From positions 448,001-512,000 of the forward strand of contig CAVTLK010000004.1 of assembly GCA_963735595.1 (NCBI GenBank): DNA of 64,000 nucleotides. Reading direction: 5' to 3'. The stretch is from an uncultured delta proteobacterium. Its GTDB lineage: Bacteria; Desulfobacterota; Zymogenia; Zymogenales; Zymogenaceae. Of this stretch, positions 23,445-30,341 are shown piece after piece (position 1 is the first letter of the stretch; the number at the start of each line of letters is the position of its first letter). The notes beneath the pieces were generated by a model that had not been told where the DNA came from, did not search any database, and saw only the letters and a program-made list of their open reading frames with translations. A program made the translations under genes and the position numbers.

Positions 23445-24950
23445 ATGGTAAAAGAGATCATTATCAATGCCCATCCCTGGGAAACACGGGCCGCCCTGCT
23501 CGATAACGGGGTGCTGTCCGAGTTTTACCTCGAAAGGCCCAAGGACCTGGGAGTCTCGGGCAATATCTACAAGGGAAAGGTTATCAGGGTAATGCCCGGC
23601 ATGGAGGCGGCGTTCGTCGATATCGGGCTGGAGAAGGCGGCCTTCCTCTATGCCACCGACTTCCTGGACGAGATCGACGAGATGGAGAGCCTGCTGGACA
23701 AAGTCAGCCCCGATTACTTCGAAGGCCTTGAGCAGCCCTACTCGGTCCCCGCGGCCGGCACCGTCGAGATGATGAAGCGGGGCCAGGAAGTGCTCGTGCA
23801 GGTGGCCCGGGAGCCGATCGGCTCCAAGGGCGCGCGCATCACCTCCCATATCTCGTTGCCGGGCAAATACCTGGTGCTGCTGACCATGATGGACCGGGTG
23901 GGCGTATCCCGCCGCATCGAGGATGAGCCCGAGCGAAAGCGCCTCAAACAAATCGTCGAGCAGGTGAAACCTCCCGGAGCGGGCTTCATCGTGCGCACCG
24001 CCGGACAGGGGATGAGCGAGAACGAGATCAAAGAGGACCTCGAGTTTCTCATGAAACTCTCCCGCTCGATCCTGGCCAAGAAGGAGCGGTCCGGCGCCCC
24101 GGTTCTCATCCACCGGGAGCTGGACCTGGGCCTGCGCATGGTCAGGGACCTGCTTACCCAGGACGTCGATGCGCTGATTGTCGATTCCGAGTCCGAGTAC
24201 CACCGGCTCCTGGAATTTGCCGAGTCGTTTCTGCCGCGGGTCGCGGGCTCGATCCGGCGCTACGAGCGCCCCGTGCCGATATTCGAGCACTACGGCCTGG
24301 AGATGGAGATAAAACGTGCGCTGGGCAAGAAGGTCTGGCTCAAGTCGGGCGGTTCTATCGTCATCGAGGGTACCGAGGCGCTGACGGCCGTGGACGTGAA
24401 CACGGGAAAATTCGTCGGGAAGCGGGACCTCGAAGATACGATCCTGCGAACAAACATGGAGGCCGTCCGCGAGATCGCCTACCAGCTGAGGCTTCGCAAC
24501 ATCGGGGGATTGGTAATCATTGACTTTATCGATATGGAGCGGGCCGAGAACCGGGAAAAGGTCTACAACGCGCTGGAAGAGGCGATGAAGGCCGACACGA
24601 AGAAGACCAACATCCTCAAGATATCGGAGCTGGGCATCGTGGAGATGACCCGCAAGCGCACCCGCGAAAACCTCACCCAGGCGCTGGCCGACCCGTGCCC
24701 CTACTGCGACGGCCACGGCTTCTTGAAATCAAAACGCACCGTCTGCTACGAAATCTTCCGGGACCTGATAAAAGGGGCAGGCGCAAAACATGAAAAAGCC
24801 ACGGTGCAGGTGAACCCGGACGTGGCCTCGCTCCTGTATGACGAGGAGCGGGTGTGGCTCGACGACATCGAGGAGCGGTTCGGTATCCGCGTTGCGGTGC
24901 GCGCCGCGCCGCAGTTCCATATCGAGGAGTATGAGATCGGGTGGGGGTAG
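23445..24950 (+). CDS. rng: ribonuclease G (Rne/Rng family)
   Basis: GNIYKGKV..VMPGMEAAFVDIG, DVNTGKF, RLRNIGGLVIIDFIDM and CPYCDG motifs. Confidence 0.93.
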   Translation: MVKEIIINAHPWETRAALLDNGVLSEFYLERPKDLGVSGNIYKGKVIRVMPGMEAAFVDIGLEKAAFLYATDFLDEIDEMESLLDKVSPDYFEGLEQPYSVPAAGTVEMMKRGQEVLVQVAREPIGSKGARITSHISLPGKYLVLLTMMDRVGVSRRIEDEPERKRLKQIVEQVKPPGAGFIVRTAGQGMSENEIKEDLEFLMKLSRSILAKKERSGAPVLIHRELDLGLRMVRDLLTQDVDALIVDSESEYHRLLEFAESFLPRVAGSIRRYERPVPIFEHYGLEMEIKRALGKKVWLKSGGSIVIEGTEALTAVDVNTGKFVGKRDLEDTILRTNMEAVREIAYQLRLRNIGGLVIIDFIDMERAENREKVYNALEEAMKADTKKTNILKISELGIVEMTRKRTRENLTQALADPCPYCDGHGFLKSKRTVCYEIFRDLIKGAGAKHEKATVQVNPDVASLLYDEERVWLDDIEERFGIRVAVRAAPQFHIEEYEIGWG

Positions 24951-24971
24951 GGGAATTTTAAGTAAATCCAT

Positions 24972-25019
24972 ATACAATTTGTAGTGGATACCTAATAAGA
25001 TAAACACCATATATGGTGT
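24972..25019. promoter_or_regulatory. tandem NrdR-box-like operators
   Basis: ATACAATTTGTAGTGG (24972-24987) and perfect palindrome ACACCATATATGGTGT (25004-25019), 32 bp start-to-start; NrdR consensus is acaCwAtATaTwGtgt. Confidence 0.7.
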
Positions 25020-25025
25020 TTTTTC

Positions 25026-25054
25026 TTGACTTTCTAGTTCTTTTATGCTAATAT
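25026..25054 (+). promoter_or_regulatory. sigma-70 promoter of the CBASS operon
   Basis: TTGACT-N17-TAATAT with extended TG, about 40 bp before the cap4 ATG. Confidence 0.7.
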
Positions 25055-25093
25055 AGCGATATTTAATCGAACCTATTGTTTTAGGCTATAAGG

Positions 25094-26617
25094 ATGGCAC
25101 TTCAAGTAATTCCAAGAATTGCTGGCGATGATTTTCAAGCTCGATGGTTTTGGTTTCAAGCTTGCCGACTATTTTCTATTTATAAGACCGTCGATACCGT
25201 AATCTTCGAATCAAAGGAACATGGGGGCTTCGATGATGTGGTGGTGAAGTATAGCCGGCCAATACCTGACGGAAGAGGTAACACCATAAATGCTGATTGT
25301 TATCAAATAAAATTTCATGTTAACCATGCCGGTTCTTTCACATGCGATAAGTTAAAAGACCCAAGTTTTATCGGGAGTAGTAAGGATTCAATTCTTCATA
25401 GACTTAGAGATGCTTACTTAGGAACACTCGGTAAAGAGAAATGCCTGTTTAACATAATCTCATCATGGCCGATAGATCCTAATGATTCACTTGCTACGCT
25501 TGTTGATCAGTATGATAATAAACTTAGGTTAGATGAGGTTCTATTTAATCCTAAGAAGATCCATTTCGTGGGTATTAAGGATGACTGGAAACGAGTTCTT
25601 GGCGTTGCCAATGAAGGTGATTTATACAAGATATTAAGTCAGCTCAGGATAGATACATGGCCGCCTAACCTAAAACTATTTCAAGAAGTTCTTAATACGA
25701 AATTAGAAAACGTAGGGCTACTACCTATAAGCGATGCTTCTATCGGAAGTCTTTATGACGATCTAATTTGGAAACTATACCGTAATGGACTTAATACGTT
25801 CCGGCAGGGCGATATTATAGAAATTGCCAAGAACGAGGGGTTATGGGTAGGAAATAGAATATCGAGCGAAACGAAGTTACGTTTAGGTATTCGTAGTTTT
25901 CATAAATGGGCCGAGTATTTGGAGGATGATACTAGTTCTCTCCTCTGTCTTCTGAAATACTTCGATAATAGAAAACTTAAGAAAGAATATGCATGGACTA
26001 AACACATTATACCAGAGGTCAAAGGTTTCTTGGAATCTTCCCTGAAGGACGAGAATTCTTGTGAACTCATCCTGGATGCTCATTCTTCGATCGCTTTTCT
26101 CGCGGGTTATATATTAAACTCCAAGTCTGGCAAGAAAGTGACGATTAGACAGAAAACGATAAAAGGTGGTATTGAGTTTTGGTCTGGTAGTGAAATAGAA
26201 AATAGCGATAAAAGCGAATGGTGCTGCGAAACGATCGAGAGGGATTCCGGGAAAGCTGACTTAGCCGTAGCTATCAGTATATCTAATAACACTATTGGGG
26301 ATGTGGACGACTTTGTCGGACGCTCATTGCCCGTTGGGAAGATTCTTCATTTAAAGCTTCTGTCCGGGACAAGTCAGGTAGCGATTAAAAACGGTGCCCA
26401 TGCTTTACACTTGGCACAAGACGCAATAAGATTGATCAGAGAACATTACGCGAGAAAAGGGGATAGTACTCGTGTCCATTTTTTCATTTCCGCACCTAAT
26501 GGTTTTACTTTTTTCTTTGGGCAAGCGTCTCACGTATTAGGGAAACTGGTCCTTTACGAGTATGATTTTTCGTCGGGGGTATTGGGTTCCTATGAACCAG
26601 CAGTAGTACTGCCGTAA
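25094..26617 (+). CDS. cap4: CBASS effector Cap4 (restriction-like endonuclease + SAVED)
   Basis: GDDFQARWFW, GFDDVV and YQIKFHV nuclease motifs; SAVED region DAHSSIAFLAG...HFFISAPNGFTFFFGQ...LYEYDF; closely parallels Enterobacter cloacae Cap4 as I recall it. Confidence 0.92.
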   Translation: MALQVIPRIAGDDFQARWFWFQACRLFSIYKTVDTVIFESKEHGGFDDVVVKYSRPIPDGRGNTINADCYQIKFHVNHAGSFTCDKLKDPSFIGSSKDSILHRLRDAYLGTLGKEKCLFNIISSWPIDPNDSLATLVDQYDNKLRLDEVLFNPKKIHFVGIKDDWKRVLGVANEGDLYKILSQLRIDTWPPNLKLFQEVLNTKLENVGLLPISDASIGSLYDDLIWKLYRNGLNTFRQGDIIEIAKNEGLWVGNRISSETKLRLGIRSFHKWAEYLEDDTSSLLCLLKYFDNRKLKKEYAWTKHIIPEVKGFLESSLKDENSCELILDAHSSIAFLAGYILNSKSGKKVTIRQKTIKGGIEFWSGSEIENSDKSEWCCETIERDSGKADLAVAISISNNTIGDVDDFVGRSLPVGKILHLKLLSGTSQVAIKNGAHALHLAQDAIRLIREHYARKGDSTRVHFFISAPNGFTFFFGQASHVLGKLVLYEYDFSSGVLGSYEPAVVLP

Positions 26618-26638
26618 GATTAGGGGAGGATATTATTT

Positions 26639-27679
26639 ATGGATCTACCAACCTACTTTAAGGATTTCTTGTCAAATATACGTCTTACAGATTCTCAGAC
26701 TGAAGAACTGAAAAAAGGACACGAACTTCTCAGAAATCGACTTCAAGAGTACGATGAGATATCTAGAACCGTTATCACAACTTTCTTGCAAGGTAGTTAT
26801 AGGAGAGGTACGTCAATTCGCCCCAAACCAGAATCTCTCGCTGATGTCGATGTGGTAGTCGTGACAAACATAGATAAAGGGTCCGTAACACCGGGAGATG
26901 CTCTAAAGCTATTTATGCCTTTCTTAGACAAATACTATAAGGGAAAATATGAAATTCAGGGTCGTTCCATCGGAATCGATATGAGTAAGATATCTTTGGA
27001 TCTTGTGCCTACGACGAGTATGGCTAGTAGAACGACACTAGAGTCCGGCTTTTTTAGGTCAGATAAAACGATTGAAGACTACGAATTTAAAAGACTCGGT
27101 TCCTCATTACCGCTCTTCATTCCGAATCGAGAAGTGGATAGATGGGAGGAAACGGATCCAATAGCACAAATTGACTGGACTATTGATAAAAACGCGAATT
27201 GTAATGGCCATTACGTTAATGTAGTTAAGGCCCTTAAATGGTGGCGTCAGGAAAAACAGTCGAAGCCAAAATATCCCAAAAGCTATCCATTAGAACACCT
27301 TATTGGCCAGTGCTGTCCTGACGGCATTAAGAGCGTTGCCGAAGGGGTAACTAAGTCGTTGGAGGGAATTAAAGATAAATTCGCTGCTGCCGCCCAGCAA
27401 AAAACAACCCCGTTTATTCCAGACCATGGGGTTCCAAGTCATAACGTTTTAGGGCGTGTTTCCGGTGAAGATTTCTCGGCTTTTCATACTCATGTTGGTA
27501 ATGCCGCATCTTTATCAAGAAAAGCGTTCGATTCTGCTGATCTAGAAGAAAGCTTAGAACTATGGGGACAACTGTTCGGAGATAATTTTCCCGATTCAGG
27601 TAATGGCGGTGATAAAGGCGGTGGCTATACAGAACGGAAAAAGAGTACAAATATAGGGGGGAGTCGCTGGGGGAAATAG
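26639..27679 (+). CDS. cdnD: CBASS cyclic oligonucleotide synthase (CD-NTase, CdnD-like)
   Basis: TFLQGSYRRGTSIRP...DVDVVVVTN, QGRSIG, LDLVP, NGHYVNVVKALKWWR and YPLEH motifs. Confidence 0.93.
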   Translation: MDLPTYFKDFLSNIRLTDSQTEELKKGHELLRNRLQEYDEISRTVITTFLQGSYRRGTSIRPKPESLADVDVVVVTNIDKGSVTPGDALKLFMPFLDKYYKGKYEIQGRSIGIDMSKISLDLVPTTSMASRTTLESGFFRSDKTIEDYEFKRLGSSLPLFIPNREVDRWEETDPIAQIDWTIDKNANCNGHYVNVVKALKWWRQEKQSKPKYPKSYPLEHLIGQCCPDGIKSVAEGVTKSLEGIKDKFAAAAQQKTTPFIPDHGVPSHNVLGRVSGEDFSAFHTHVGNAASLSRKAFDSADLEESLELWGQLFGDNFPDSGNGGDKGGGYTERKKSTNIGGSRWGK

Positions 27680-29484
27680 AATATAAGACTATAAGTAAAG
27701 AGCTCCTGGATGGCAGAAGAGCAATAGACGGCATATATGGAGCCATGATACTAGAAGACTGGTTGTGGTATCCGTCAGTTTCAAAATGGGCTTTACATTG
27801 TCGTTTAAGTATCCCAGTAGTTACATCGGACGAGGTACTTGCCGTAACCGATTGGTATTTCCTTGTTGATGAAATATACCCGTGGGGTGATGTAAAGGTT
27901 CATCCCGCAAAAATAAATGGTATCAGCCGAACATACCAACACCAAATATATAATAGTTATGGCGATAATGATGAACCATGGAGAAACGGTAATATTTGTG
28001 TAAACAACAGCACATACATACTTGGCCGCGGTTATAGTAATGAACCTTATGAATCTCGCGAAAGGTTAGCGTGGAATGTAAAACGAACTATTGATTGGCT
28101 AATTGACGCAAAAAACGGGACCTTAATAAAGCCGGGCGAACCTTTCGAGCTCCCTTATCCCCCCTCCCGCGTAAATGTACCTAGAGTGATCTTTTGCGAG
28201 GACGAAAGTACTTTTAAACTATGGAATACAAAGCACGATACTTTTCTTGGACTTGTATATTTCTTTATATCGTCCACCATTAAAGACACCCTTCTTGTGG
28301 ATCGTTTCTGTGGTTCTAACGGGCAAGAGATATTTAGAATTGATTGGGGGGCAAATTTTGAAAGTAAAAGAAGTAACCCCCTTATAGGTATCTGGTTAAG
28401 ATTTAATGAGCCATTAGTACTTCCACCTTGGCAAGTCCCTTTTAATTGGGGTGAAATCTCAACTGCAGCAGACGCTCAAGGGATAGATTTTCTAGGAGCC
28501 ATACGCAAGATTGCCAGTCATCTTCGTGATGGTAAACCACACGTTCTTCTAATCGGTTTCCCCATACCAGAATTCGTTGGCGATAAACAAGTTAGAATGC
28601 ATTGGCAATCTATCGAATTCCCAATACTACGGCCAGGGAAGAGTTCAATACCAAAAGGTTTTAGAGATAACGAGTCGGGTTGCTGGCAACGAGACAAAAC
28701 ACAAATATTTAGAAACTCCAATTCAATTGGCTGGCTAAGGACGGAAAACTGGAACAGCAGCGAAATCAGGAGCAGGGGCCAATTAGCGAATTCAATCTTG
28801 TCAGAAAGGGTACTTCTTATTGGAGCAGGAGCGGTAGGCTCAGTTATAGCTGAGCTTCTTGTTAGAGGAGGAGTTAAGGAATTAACTATTCTTGATGATG
28901 ATAAAGTAGAGATTGGGAATCTAGTACGGCATAGTCTATCAATGGAGAGTATTGGTAGATCCAAGGCGGAGGCTCTAGCGGATAAGCTTACTAACCTATC
29001 TCCGCACCTAAAGGTAAAAGGCTTTATCAAGAAGATAAAGAGCATGGACGGCGAAGTTATTGATTTGGTTGGAAACTCGGGTATTATCATAGATTGCTCT
29101 GCGTCGGATGATGTACTATATATACTTTCAACGTATAGCTGGCCTTCCAAACGATTTTTCTTTTCTATTTCAATTGGACTCCAGGCAAGAAGAACCTTCA
29201 TGTATAGTTCGTTTTCAGTAAACTTCCCGCATAACAGCTTTATGGAAGAAATGAGTAAATGGCATGAAAAAGAAAGAGAAGAGTCTAAGAATGTTCCTTT
29301 TCCTATGGAGGGAATTGGATGTTGGCATCCTGTCTTCCCCGCTCGCGCTGATGATATATGGTTAACCGCTTCCGTTGCTGTTAAGTACATAAACGAGATA
29401 CTAACGAAACCAGCAGGAAACCAACTAGTGGTTTTCGAGCATATTGGGGATATAGGCTGTTTCGCGGGAATTAGAAGAATATAG
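27667..29484 (+). CDS. cap2: CBASS Cap2 (E2-E1 ubiquitin-like conjugating enzyme); first ATG at 27745, probable true start upstream (CTG 27667)
   Basis: E2 TYQHQ...WRNGNIC; ThiF LIGAGAVGS, GNLVRH, IIDCS; E1 Cys in GCWHPVFPARADD. Confidence 0.92.
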   Translation: MGEIEYKTISKELLDGRRAIDGIYGAMILEDWLWYPSVSKWALHCRLSIPVVTSDEVLAVTDWYFLVDEIYPWGDVKVHPAKINGISRTYQHQIYNSYGDNDEPWRNGNICVNNSTYILGRGYSNEPYESRERLAWNVKRTIDWLIDAKNGTLIKPGEPFELPYPPSRVNVPRVIFCEDESTFKLWNTKHDTFLGLVYFFISSTIKDTLLVDRFCGSNGQEIFRIDWGANFESKRSNPLIGIWLRFNEPLVLPPWQVPFNWGEISTAADAQGIDFLGAIRKIASHLRDGKPHVLLIGFPIPEFVGDKQVRMHWQSIEFPILRPGKSSIPKGFRDNESGCWQRDKTQIFRNSNSIGWLRTENWNSSEIRSRGQLANSILSERVLLIGAGAVGSVIAELLVRGGVKELTILDDDKVEIGNLVRHSLSMESIGRSKAEALADKLTNLSPHLKVKGFIKKIKSMDGEVIDLVGNSGIIIDCSASDDVLYILSTYSWPSKRFFFSISIGLQARRTFMYSSFSVNFPHNSFMEEMSKWHEKEREESKNVPFPMEGIGCWHPVFPARADDIWLTASVAVKYINEILTKPAGNQLVVFEHIGDIGCFAGIRRI

Positions 29485-29497
29485 AACTAAAACGAGC

Positions 29498-29995
29498 ATG
29501 GAAGAGTATAACGAGTTTTGGTCAAGAGATAGGAAATACGGCTTAAATATTTCCAGGATACTCGTAAGGGAAATTTATGAATATTGTAATGAGTCCGGTT
29601 ATCTGGAAACGGGTGGAACACTAATCGGCTACTATAATCGAAGCCGTGATTGTGCATTTGTTACAGCTATAACTCCCGCGCCTAGTGATTCAAGAAGTGG
29701 GTATAGTCGGTTCTATCGAGGTTTTGAAGGTTTACAACATTTGTTAGACCGCTTTTGGGTGGATAAGAGGGAGTATTATCTTGGTGAATGGCATTATCAT
29801 CCGGCATGTCAATCTGATCCAAGTGGATTAGATAATAGTGAAATTTTGCGTATTTCTAGAGATAGGAATTACAATTGCCCGGAGCCAATTCTTATTATTG
29901 TAAGTAGGGCAAAGAATCGTGGTATGAATATAAGAGCGTACGTAGTTTCGAGAGAACTTTCTTTACAGAAACTCCTGAAACGCTATTCTAAATAA
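29498..29995 (+). CDS. cap3: CBASS Cap3 JAB/MPN isopeptidase
   Basis: ETGG.LIGYY and JAMM motif YLGEWHYHP...PSGLD. Confidence 0.93.
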   Translation: MEEYNEFWSRDRKYGLNISRILVREIYEYCNESGYLETGGTLIGYYNRSRDCAFVTAITPAPSDSRSGYSRFYRGFEGLQHLLDRFWVDKREYYLGEWHYHPACQSDPSGLDNSEILRISRDRNYNCPEPILIIVSRAKNRGMNIRAYVVSRELSLQKLLKRYSK

Positions 29996-30090
29996 CGTAG
30001 ATATCGCGAGTTAATATGAGGTATTCTAAGATATATGAACAAATAGTCTTATAATCTCACACTATCTTCCCTTATAACCCCATACCGCCC

Positions 30091-30119
30091 TTGCCATATA
30101 CCAGATCATGCAGTAGTAT
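30091..30119 (+). promoter_or_regulatory. groESL promoter
   Basis: TTGCCA-N17-TAGTAT immediately before CIRCE. Confidence 0.6.
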
Positions 30120-30123
30120 TATA

Positions 30124-30150
30124 TTAGCACTCACCTCTGTCGAGTGCTAA
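30124..30150. promoter_or_regulatory. CIRCE element (HrcA operator)
   Basis: Perfect TTAGCACTC-N9-GAGTGCTAA upstream of groES. Confidence 0.97.
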
Positions 30151-30341
30151 CGTTTTTGGTCCGGAAATGTATGCGTTATTCATTATTTCCTCCGGCGCGG
30201 CCGCCCGCCTGCGGCGTCCCGGCCTGTTGTGCTACCGTTCCATTGTGTCATTTCGTCATTGCGCCATTGAGATATAGAGGCAACAGCGCCGCGCGAGCGG
30301 CCTATGGTTTTATGTAACACTAAATAAGAAAGGAGTGGGCT

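Follow-up and report, generated by a model that had tools for sequence, protein, structure and literature searches.

A tandem NrdR-type box pair as a candidate operator in the leader of a type II CBASS operon

The CBASS operon and its site of insertion

The window, which is the whole 64-kb stretch of DNA analysed here from an uncultured delta proteobacterium, contains a low-G+C type II CBASS operon (cap4-cdnD-cap2-cap3) whose four plus-strand genes form a single run inserted between the host genes rng and groES (Table 1). The G+C content drops from about 60 % to 35–47 % across positions 25000–30200, and identity with the related genome G003 ends at about 24956 and restarts near 30000; the boxes described below thus belong to the insert, the first of them beginning about 16 bp inside its left junction. 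The same four genes are present in the same order in the type II CdnD/Cap4/Cap2/Cap3 systems of PDB entries 7ljl, 7to3 and 7yib, which we take to be of Enterobacter cloacae origin, and the cyclase (7e-95) and Cap4 (4e-62) match the solved proteins. The window cyclase is shorter than most of its homologues, with about 30 mid-protein residues missing relative to most of them (about 350–390 aa), and a few homologues of 350–359 aa are also short. The two enterobacterial plasmid relatives examined (L404 and L405) differ from the window in having no box pair. When the genome collection was scanned for close orthologues of the cassette with cap4 alone, only three distant loci (32–38 %) were returned, and a scan of metagenomes gave 80 loci with 45–54 % cyclase identity, with no pair in their leaders. 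An inverted repeat at 30124–30150 in the groES leader is presumably of the CIRCE type.

Table 1. Features of the CBASS insertion and its flanks, in window coordinates
Feature	Position	Strand	Basis or remarks
rng (RNase E/G family), host gene left of insertion	23445..24950	+	Pfam RNase_E_G 1e-104; 96 % identical orthologue in G003
AT-rich leader, part of insertion	24951..25093	+	29 % G+C; G003 identity ends at about 24956
NrdR-type box 1	24972..24987	.	C4, A6, T9, T11 and G13 present; middle TT, not AT; 12.1 bits
Linker	24988..25003	.	16 bp; published spacing 15–16 bp
NrdR-type box 2	25004..25019	.	six of six conserved positions present; core of palindrome 25002–25021; 18.4 bits
Predicted sigma-70 promoter	25026..25054	+	TTGACT-N17-TAATAT, extended -10 TG; consensus match only
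cap4-like effector, PD-(D/E)XK nuclease + SAVED, 507 aa	25094..26617	+	Pfam SAVED; PADLOC endonuclease effector 9e-150; PDB 7yib Cap4 4e-62
CdnD-like CD-NTase, 346 aa	26639..27679	+	SMODS; PDB 7ljl 'cyclic AMP-AMP-GMP synthase' 7e-95
cap2 (E2-E1), 579 aa	27745..29484	+	ThiF; PADLOC E1-E2 3e-198
cap3 (JAB), 165 aa	29498..29995	+	Prok-JAB; PADLOC JAB 2e-47
Host groES leader	30000..30341	+	homology to relatives resumes; right end of insertion

The leader contains two NrdR-type boxes, box 1 (ATACAATTTGTAGTGG) and box 2 (ACACCATATATGGTGT), whose starts are 32 bp apart and of which the second sits within a perfect 20-bp palindrome, all as first described. The original prediction also placed them just before a TTGACT-N17-TAATAT promoter driving cap4; the motif and the cap4-like gene are both present, and the promoter remains a consensus match (9 of 12 positions) that begins 6 bp past box 2. 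Three promoter-like sites are seen in the region where 1.0 would be expected, and the promoter call taken alone is weak. As a refinement of the original observation, the boxes end upstream of the predicted -35 and do not overlap it.

No regulator gene lies beside the operon, which is flanked by rng and groES, and no WYL-family match was found in the genome (the assembly is 93 % complete), in agreement with the earlier statement that neither CapW nor CapH/CapP is encoded here. The region that follows rng was compared in seven relatives. Six of these (G003, G002, G005, G006, G007 and G009) have rng followed by the start of groES within about 350–520 bp, and in G008 rng is followed by the same groES leader up to the contig end; neither an nrd gene nor a box pair was seen behind rng in any of the seven. 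The alternative that the boxes are the relic of an nrd gene once located behind rng found no support and is scarcely credible in the light of this comparison, and the only ribonucleotide reductase (RNR) gene found in the genome, nrdJ, has a box pair of its own elsewhere, on C2. Several frameshifts split the nrdJ gene (G000:C2:526608-529126), and smc is broken likewise in G002 and G003, a pattern that points to errors of sequencing in these assemblies and not to pseudogenes.

Scores of the box pair and the rules of NrdR binding

An independent, symmetric matrix was built from 30 RNR large-subunit loci in 26 of 31 genomes, using 17 box pairs chosen by consensus score; 12 loci with no clear pair and the window's own genome were left out, such that only the nrd promoters of relatives contributed. 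With this matrix the window pair scores 30.4 bits and ranks first in the 3.63-Mb genome, above the genome's own nrdJ operator, which comes next with 26.7 bits, and it falls within the range of the leave-one-out scores of the 17 training pairs (16–38 bits). Box 2 is the second-best single box of the genome by the same matrix; with the consensus used in the original prediction, box 2 is the top single site and the pair the top tandem. Only three pairs of at least 20 bits are found in the genome at spacings of 31–32 bp, and none at spacings of 17–29 or 35–44. The third-ranked pair (G000:C4:363723-363770, 24.0 bits) lies 5′ of a small TPR-like gene, and its linker contains what we take to be a DnaA-box-like motif, TGTGGATAA.

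Dinucleotide shuffling of the 143-bp intergenic region, repeated 20 000 times, gave no score of 30.4 bits and two that reached 20, and the genome-wide maximum with 40 column-permuted matrices was 23.5 bits as against 30.4; on the window leader itself, 4 of 1000 permuted matrices reached 30.4 bits. The NrdR regular expression printed in PMC13584703 matches once in the 64-kb window, at the site of the box pair, and 52 times in the genome. Perfect palindromes of at least 20 bp number one in the window and 40 in the genome, and such a palindrome is by itself not rare.

These figures bear on a reading in which the palindrome is an intrinsic terminator for read-through from rng, or a decayed REP-like repeat, and box 1 a chance occurrence in AT-rich DNA. 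The palindrome can form a hairpin of -9.3 kcal/mol that is followed by a U-run and is flagged as terminator-like, but the hairpin has only three G-C pairs and no hairpin like it is found behind rng in the relatives. A REP-like origin is suggested by four repeats in the genome, GGACACCAyATrTGGTGTCC, that resemble box 2; however, their GG..CC and CCCTAC flanks are absent at box 2 and the repeats have no partner box. A chance pair is likewise argued against by the shuffles and, across the genome, by the permuted matrices, which do not produce it. We regard this reading as very improbable, although the palindrome may double as a weak terminator. The REP-like repeats (G000 C2:629604, C2:654483, C4:288823 and C4:321215) have a core like a single NrdR box, scoring 16–17 bits.

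The published rules of NrdR binding can be compared directly with the window pair. According to PMC13584703, both boxes are required and the length of the linker counts while its sequence does not; C4 and G13 are critical, A6 and T11 important and a TT middle is tolerated, and at least 63 % A+T is needed between C4 and G13. The window boxes have C4 and G13, 8 bp apart, in both boxes, A6 and T11, and a 16-bp linker, with A+T contents between C4 and G13 of 88 and 75 %. Box 2 carries C5 and G12, a combination reported there to weaken binding 5–10-fold when it is present in both boxes together. The same source states that NrdR occurs in 77 % of bacteria and that the NrdRs of different hosts bind one another's sites. 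According to PMC9110341, NrdR tetramers loaded with dATP and ATP bind two boxes separated by 15–16 bp, with the DNA turned through 180 degrees, no binding is seen with ATP alone or dATP alone, residues D15 and R17 lie near the bases in the structure, and NrdR blocks the access of polymerase. The original prediction presupposed an nrdR gene in this genome, and one is indeed found, above the family cut-off and with both D15 and R17.

The pair thus has much in common with the NrdR operators of RNR operons, as described in the same two reports for Escherichia coli nrdAB, nrdHIEF and nrdDG and for S. coelicolor nrdAB and nrdRJ: two partly palindromic 16-bp boxes with a 16-bp linker, the C4/A6/T11/G13 pattern, an AT-rich centre, an adjoining sigma-70-type promoter and nrdR in the genome. 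It differs in preceding a horizontally acquired defence operon and in stopping 6 bp short of the predicted -35, where those operators overlap their promoters.

Box pairs before other CBASS operons and before other genes

Within the phylum, SMODS was matched in 24 of 401 genomes; 24 other loci were fetched and the operon start was resolved for 21, the remaining three having no pair of at least 14 bits anywhere in the fetched DNA. Two of the 21 leaders carry a pair of at least 20 bits (L141, 27.4 bits; L191, 27.5 bits), and that of L147 scores 16.7 bits. With permuted matrices, 20 bits was reached on average by 0.058 of the same leaders, and by two of them with 6 of 1000 matrices; twelve other spacings gave none at 20 bits. 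Directly 3′ of the CBASS operon of G394 there is a second, very strong pair (L191:8510-8556, 39.6 bits) with no clear adjoining gene.

Further cases lie outside the phylum. Two of the three loci returned for cap4 (L017 and L018, Rhizobiales) are type III operons with TRIP13 and HORMA genes, and have a pair 83–85 bp 5′ of the first gene. The Rhizobiaceae type III clade, whose members are related to one another, was followed further once boxes had been noticed in it; a pair of 21–25 bits is present in four of five of them (L017, L018, L149 with 21.2 bits and L272 with 24.3 bits; none in L150), at varying positions in the leader and with linkers of 15 or 16 bp. A Klebsiella plasmid operon encoding patatin, a DncV-like cyclase, Cap2 and Cap3 (L411) has a pair of 21.9 bits across its predicted -10, the only pair among the 15 plasmid CBASS loci read (of 22 and 128 records matched), and an E. 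coli relative of it has one box only. In L149, L272 and L411 one box each is without C4. The recurrent pairs lie no more than about 130 bp from the first gene, and nrdR is present in all six chromosomal hosts tested (G403, G404, G298, G394, G273 and G1457).

Tandem pairs therefore recur before other CBASS operons, as the original prediction would have it, but they are missing from the closest cyclase clade, where none of 63 leaders (35 non-redundant, from the 80 metagenome loci) has one. Nor was a pair found in 34 Pseudomonadota CBASS leaders (36 loci fetched, two weak or unresolved ones omitted), in eight distant type III leaders (two more were unresolved and had none at 14 bits) or, at 31–32 bp, in six further Rhizobiaceae loci. 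A few percent of CBASS operons carry the pair, and the link is sporadic and not general to CBASS. The cyclases of the boxed operons are only 21–27 % identical to that of the window where they can be aligned, which means that the operator has been gained several times. To judge from its sequence, the window pair is a real, well-formed NrdR-type operator on a CBASS leader and one of several independent cases.

Three 33-bp pairs before DUF2188 genes (L273, L275 and L278; 17–19 bits) were rejected, the second box being inside coding sequence, as was the L222 pair, which precedes an RNR-like gene and not the weak SMODS match. A Desulfosarcina plasmid (L400:2438-3310) carries an operon with a cyclase of the same clade as that of the window and a divergent WYL gene, with no NrdR pair.

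Seven of the eight distant type III leaders that lack the pair have a divergent HTH/XRE gene. Mutual exclusion of the pair with CapH/CapP is nevertheless not claimed, since L141 and L149 have both, with ImmA/IrrE-type genes nearby as well as boxes. These two loci, together with the adjacent CapW, CapH/CapP or CapK/CapS genes that often control CBASS according to PMC13373217, are what favours the view that some other regulator with a similar palindrome, for instance a defence repressor encoded in trans, binds in the window. We consider this highly improbable, given that the operon has no regulator gene next to it and the genome no WYL match, and that the 31–32-bp phase and the C4/G13 pattern are those of NrdR.

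NrdR-type pairs are by no means confined to RNR and CBASS genes. A strict pair pattern occurs in 171 of the 401 genomes of the phylum, at about 245 sites as against 14 for the reversed control. Seventy of the 76 listed sites were read, and about 26 of them stand in front of an RNR gene, confirmed by Pfam in 6 cases and recognized from matching N-termini in the remainder. The genes behind other sites include dnaE, CdhD, a PHP-UvrD gene, a DNA methylase, Yip1-domain genes and regulators, and it is thus common in this phylum for such a pair to stand before a gene other than nrd. This makes the capture of such a pair by a defence operon plausible, and it equally feeds the rival view that the operator is real but a passenger, derived either from an NrdR-controlled promoter of the donor or from a mobile element's end, with no selected role in defence. 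The position of box 1 so near the left junction fits a passenger, as do the many viral contigs with such pairs and the second, stronger pair just 3′ of the CBASS operon in G394. However, the right end of the insert has no partner pair (the next-best pair in the island scores 14.4 bits), the operator has been gained repeatedly before CBASS operons of three cyclase groups, and the window boxes are intact and adjoin the only good promoter candidate before cap4. A passenger origin therefore seems to us quite unlikely.

Several of the strict pairs (L240, L241, L246, L174-L180, L251, L253 and L255, with dnaE, PHP-UvrD, Yip1-domain and CdhD genes) point to a regulon wider than RNR. In L258 (2098-2138) a pair lies 76 bp before a DNA methylase gene that is followed by a gene for a 249-aa product, possibly a restriction-modification system under NrdR. 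The smc leader (G000:C5:107093-107140, L416; also L415, L417 and L418) has a strong box and, after a 16-bp linker, a degenerate one that lies 5–6 bp before TTTACA, a layout kept in four of four genomes of the family, and smc is a candidate for NrdR control.

Sign of regulation and possible role in defence

The original interpretation, namely tandem NrdR-type operators placing CBASS under dNTP-responsive control, is supported: each computational check put forward with it came out in its favour. Binding by NrdR, repression and an effect on defence are inferred. The box pair is probably a working operator of the host NrdR, which would keep the CBASS operon repressed as long as dATP is abundant and free it once DNA synthesis lowers dATP. 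The host NrdR, loaded with dATP and ATP, would bind the window pair and repress by blocking the stretch just upstream of the -35. Synthesis of DNA, as in phage replication, would deplete dATP and cause NrdR to leave, and the levels of Cap4, CdnD, Cap2 and Cap3 would then rise such that the system is primed, although the cyclase would still require its own trigger. Boxed CBASS operons would thus be expected to show little expression in resting cells, given high dATP, and more when DNA synthesis surges.

The sign of the regulation was considered through the geometry of 41 nrd leaders, 28 of which have a promoter call: the boxes overlap the promoter in 22 of these, lie upstream of the -35 in four and downstream in two. 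The window pair has a gap of 6 bp to the -35, close to that of L191 (8 bp) and of the nrd promoter L248 (7 bp). At other boxed CBASS loci the boxes overlap the predicted promoter (L141, L149 and L411) or lie downstream of it (L017 and L018), both of which are repression layouts. Repression from the window position is likely, because NrdR makes the DNA turn through 180 degrees and denies polymerase access to it. Activation is conceivable because the boxes stand upstream of the -35, as an activator site would, and because NrdR activates topA of Pseudomonas aeruginosa through a box (PMC4409342); the same upstream layout is, moreover, conserved before smc. Were NrdR to bind the pair and activate or merely tune the promoter, CBASS would rise as dATP accumulates, through breakdown of host DNA or stalled replication. 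We think this unlikely, since topA has a single box and two-box sites repress in PMC13584703 and PMC9110341, and the layouts at L141, L149, L411, L017 and L018 are those of repression.

A repressing operator released during infection would be in keeping with observations in Streptococcus pneumoniae, where, according to PMC6755750, lytic infection has induced the transcripts with NrdR sites in front of them by 10 min, and at later times no host genes are induced more than the RNR operons. SPD_1594-1595, induced in lytic infection, has like topA and the window operon an NrdR box before a non-RNR gene; unlike the window, topA has one box and is activated, and neither topA nor SPD_1594-1595 is described as an anti-phage system in the parts of PMC4409342 and PMC6755750 available. 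The closest functional parallels to the proposed NrdR control are CapW/BrxR, CapH with CapP and CapK with CapS (PMC13373217), which also impose a transcriptional restraint on a toxic immune operon that is lifted under stress. The genes of these regulators adjoin the operon and their products respond to single-stranded DNA, whereas NrdR is a host core gene product acting in trans that senses dATP and ATP; NrdR goes unmentioned in the available portion of that account.

More generally, CBASS operons might repeatedly have captured NrdR operators and so use the host's dATP sensor to detect foreign DNA replication with no dedicated regulator gene, a generalization that we put forward tentatively. 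If true, this would amount to a third route of immune-operon control: abortive infection would be armed just when the synthesis of phage DNA uses up precursors or titrates NrdR, and defence would share its switch with the many phages whose own promoters appear to contain it. An NrdR operator would offer a way in which toxic immune operons that lack a neighbouring regulator could be silenced and then induced. The regulators known to date respond to single-stranded DNA and are transferred together with the operon. Through an NrdR operator CBASS would be linked to nucleotide metabolism; such control would still work in a new host, since one NrdR binds the boxes of another, and it would supply a concrete reason for CBASS induction during lytic growth. 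NrdR operators and CBASS are each known; as to the link proposed between them, and in keeping with the original remark that it was not known to have been described, no account of an NrdR-CBASS or NrdR-anti-phage link was found in the literature searched, most subscription papers being outside the reach of the search.

We note finally that viral contigs (L279-L358) contain at least 121 stretches with a strict 31-bp pair. No CBASS gene was recognized by eye at the 80 of these 121 loci that were read; the pairs precede varied phage genes, and some contigs carry them repeatedly.
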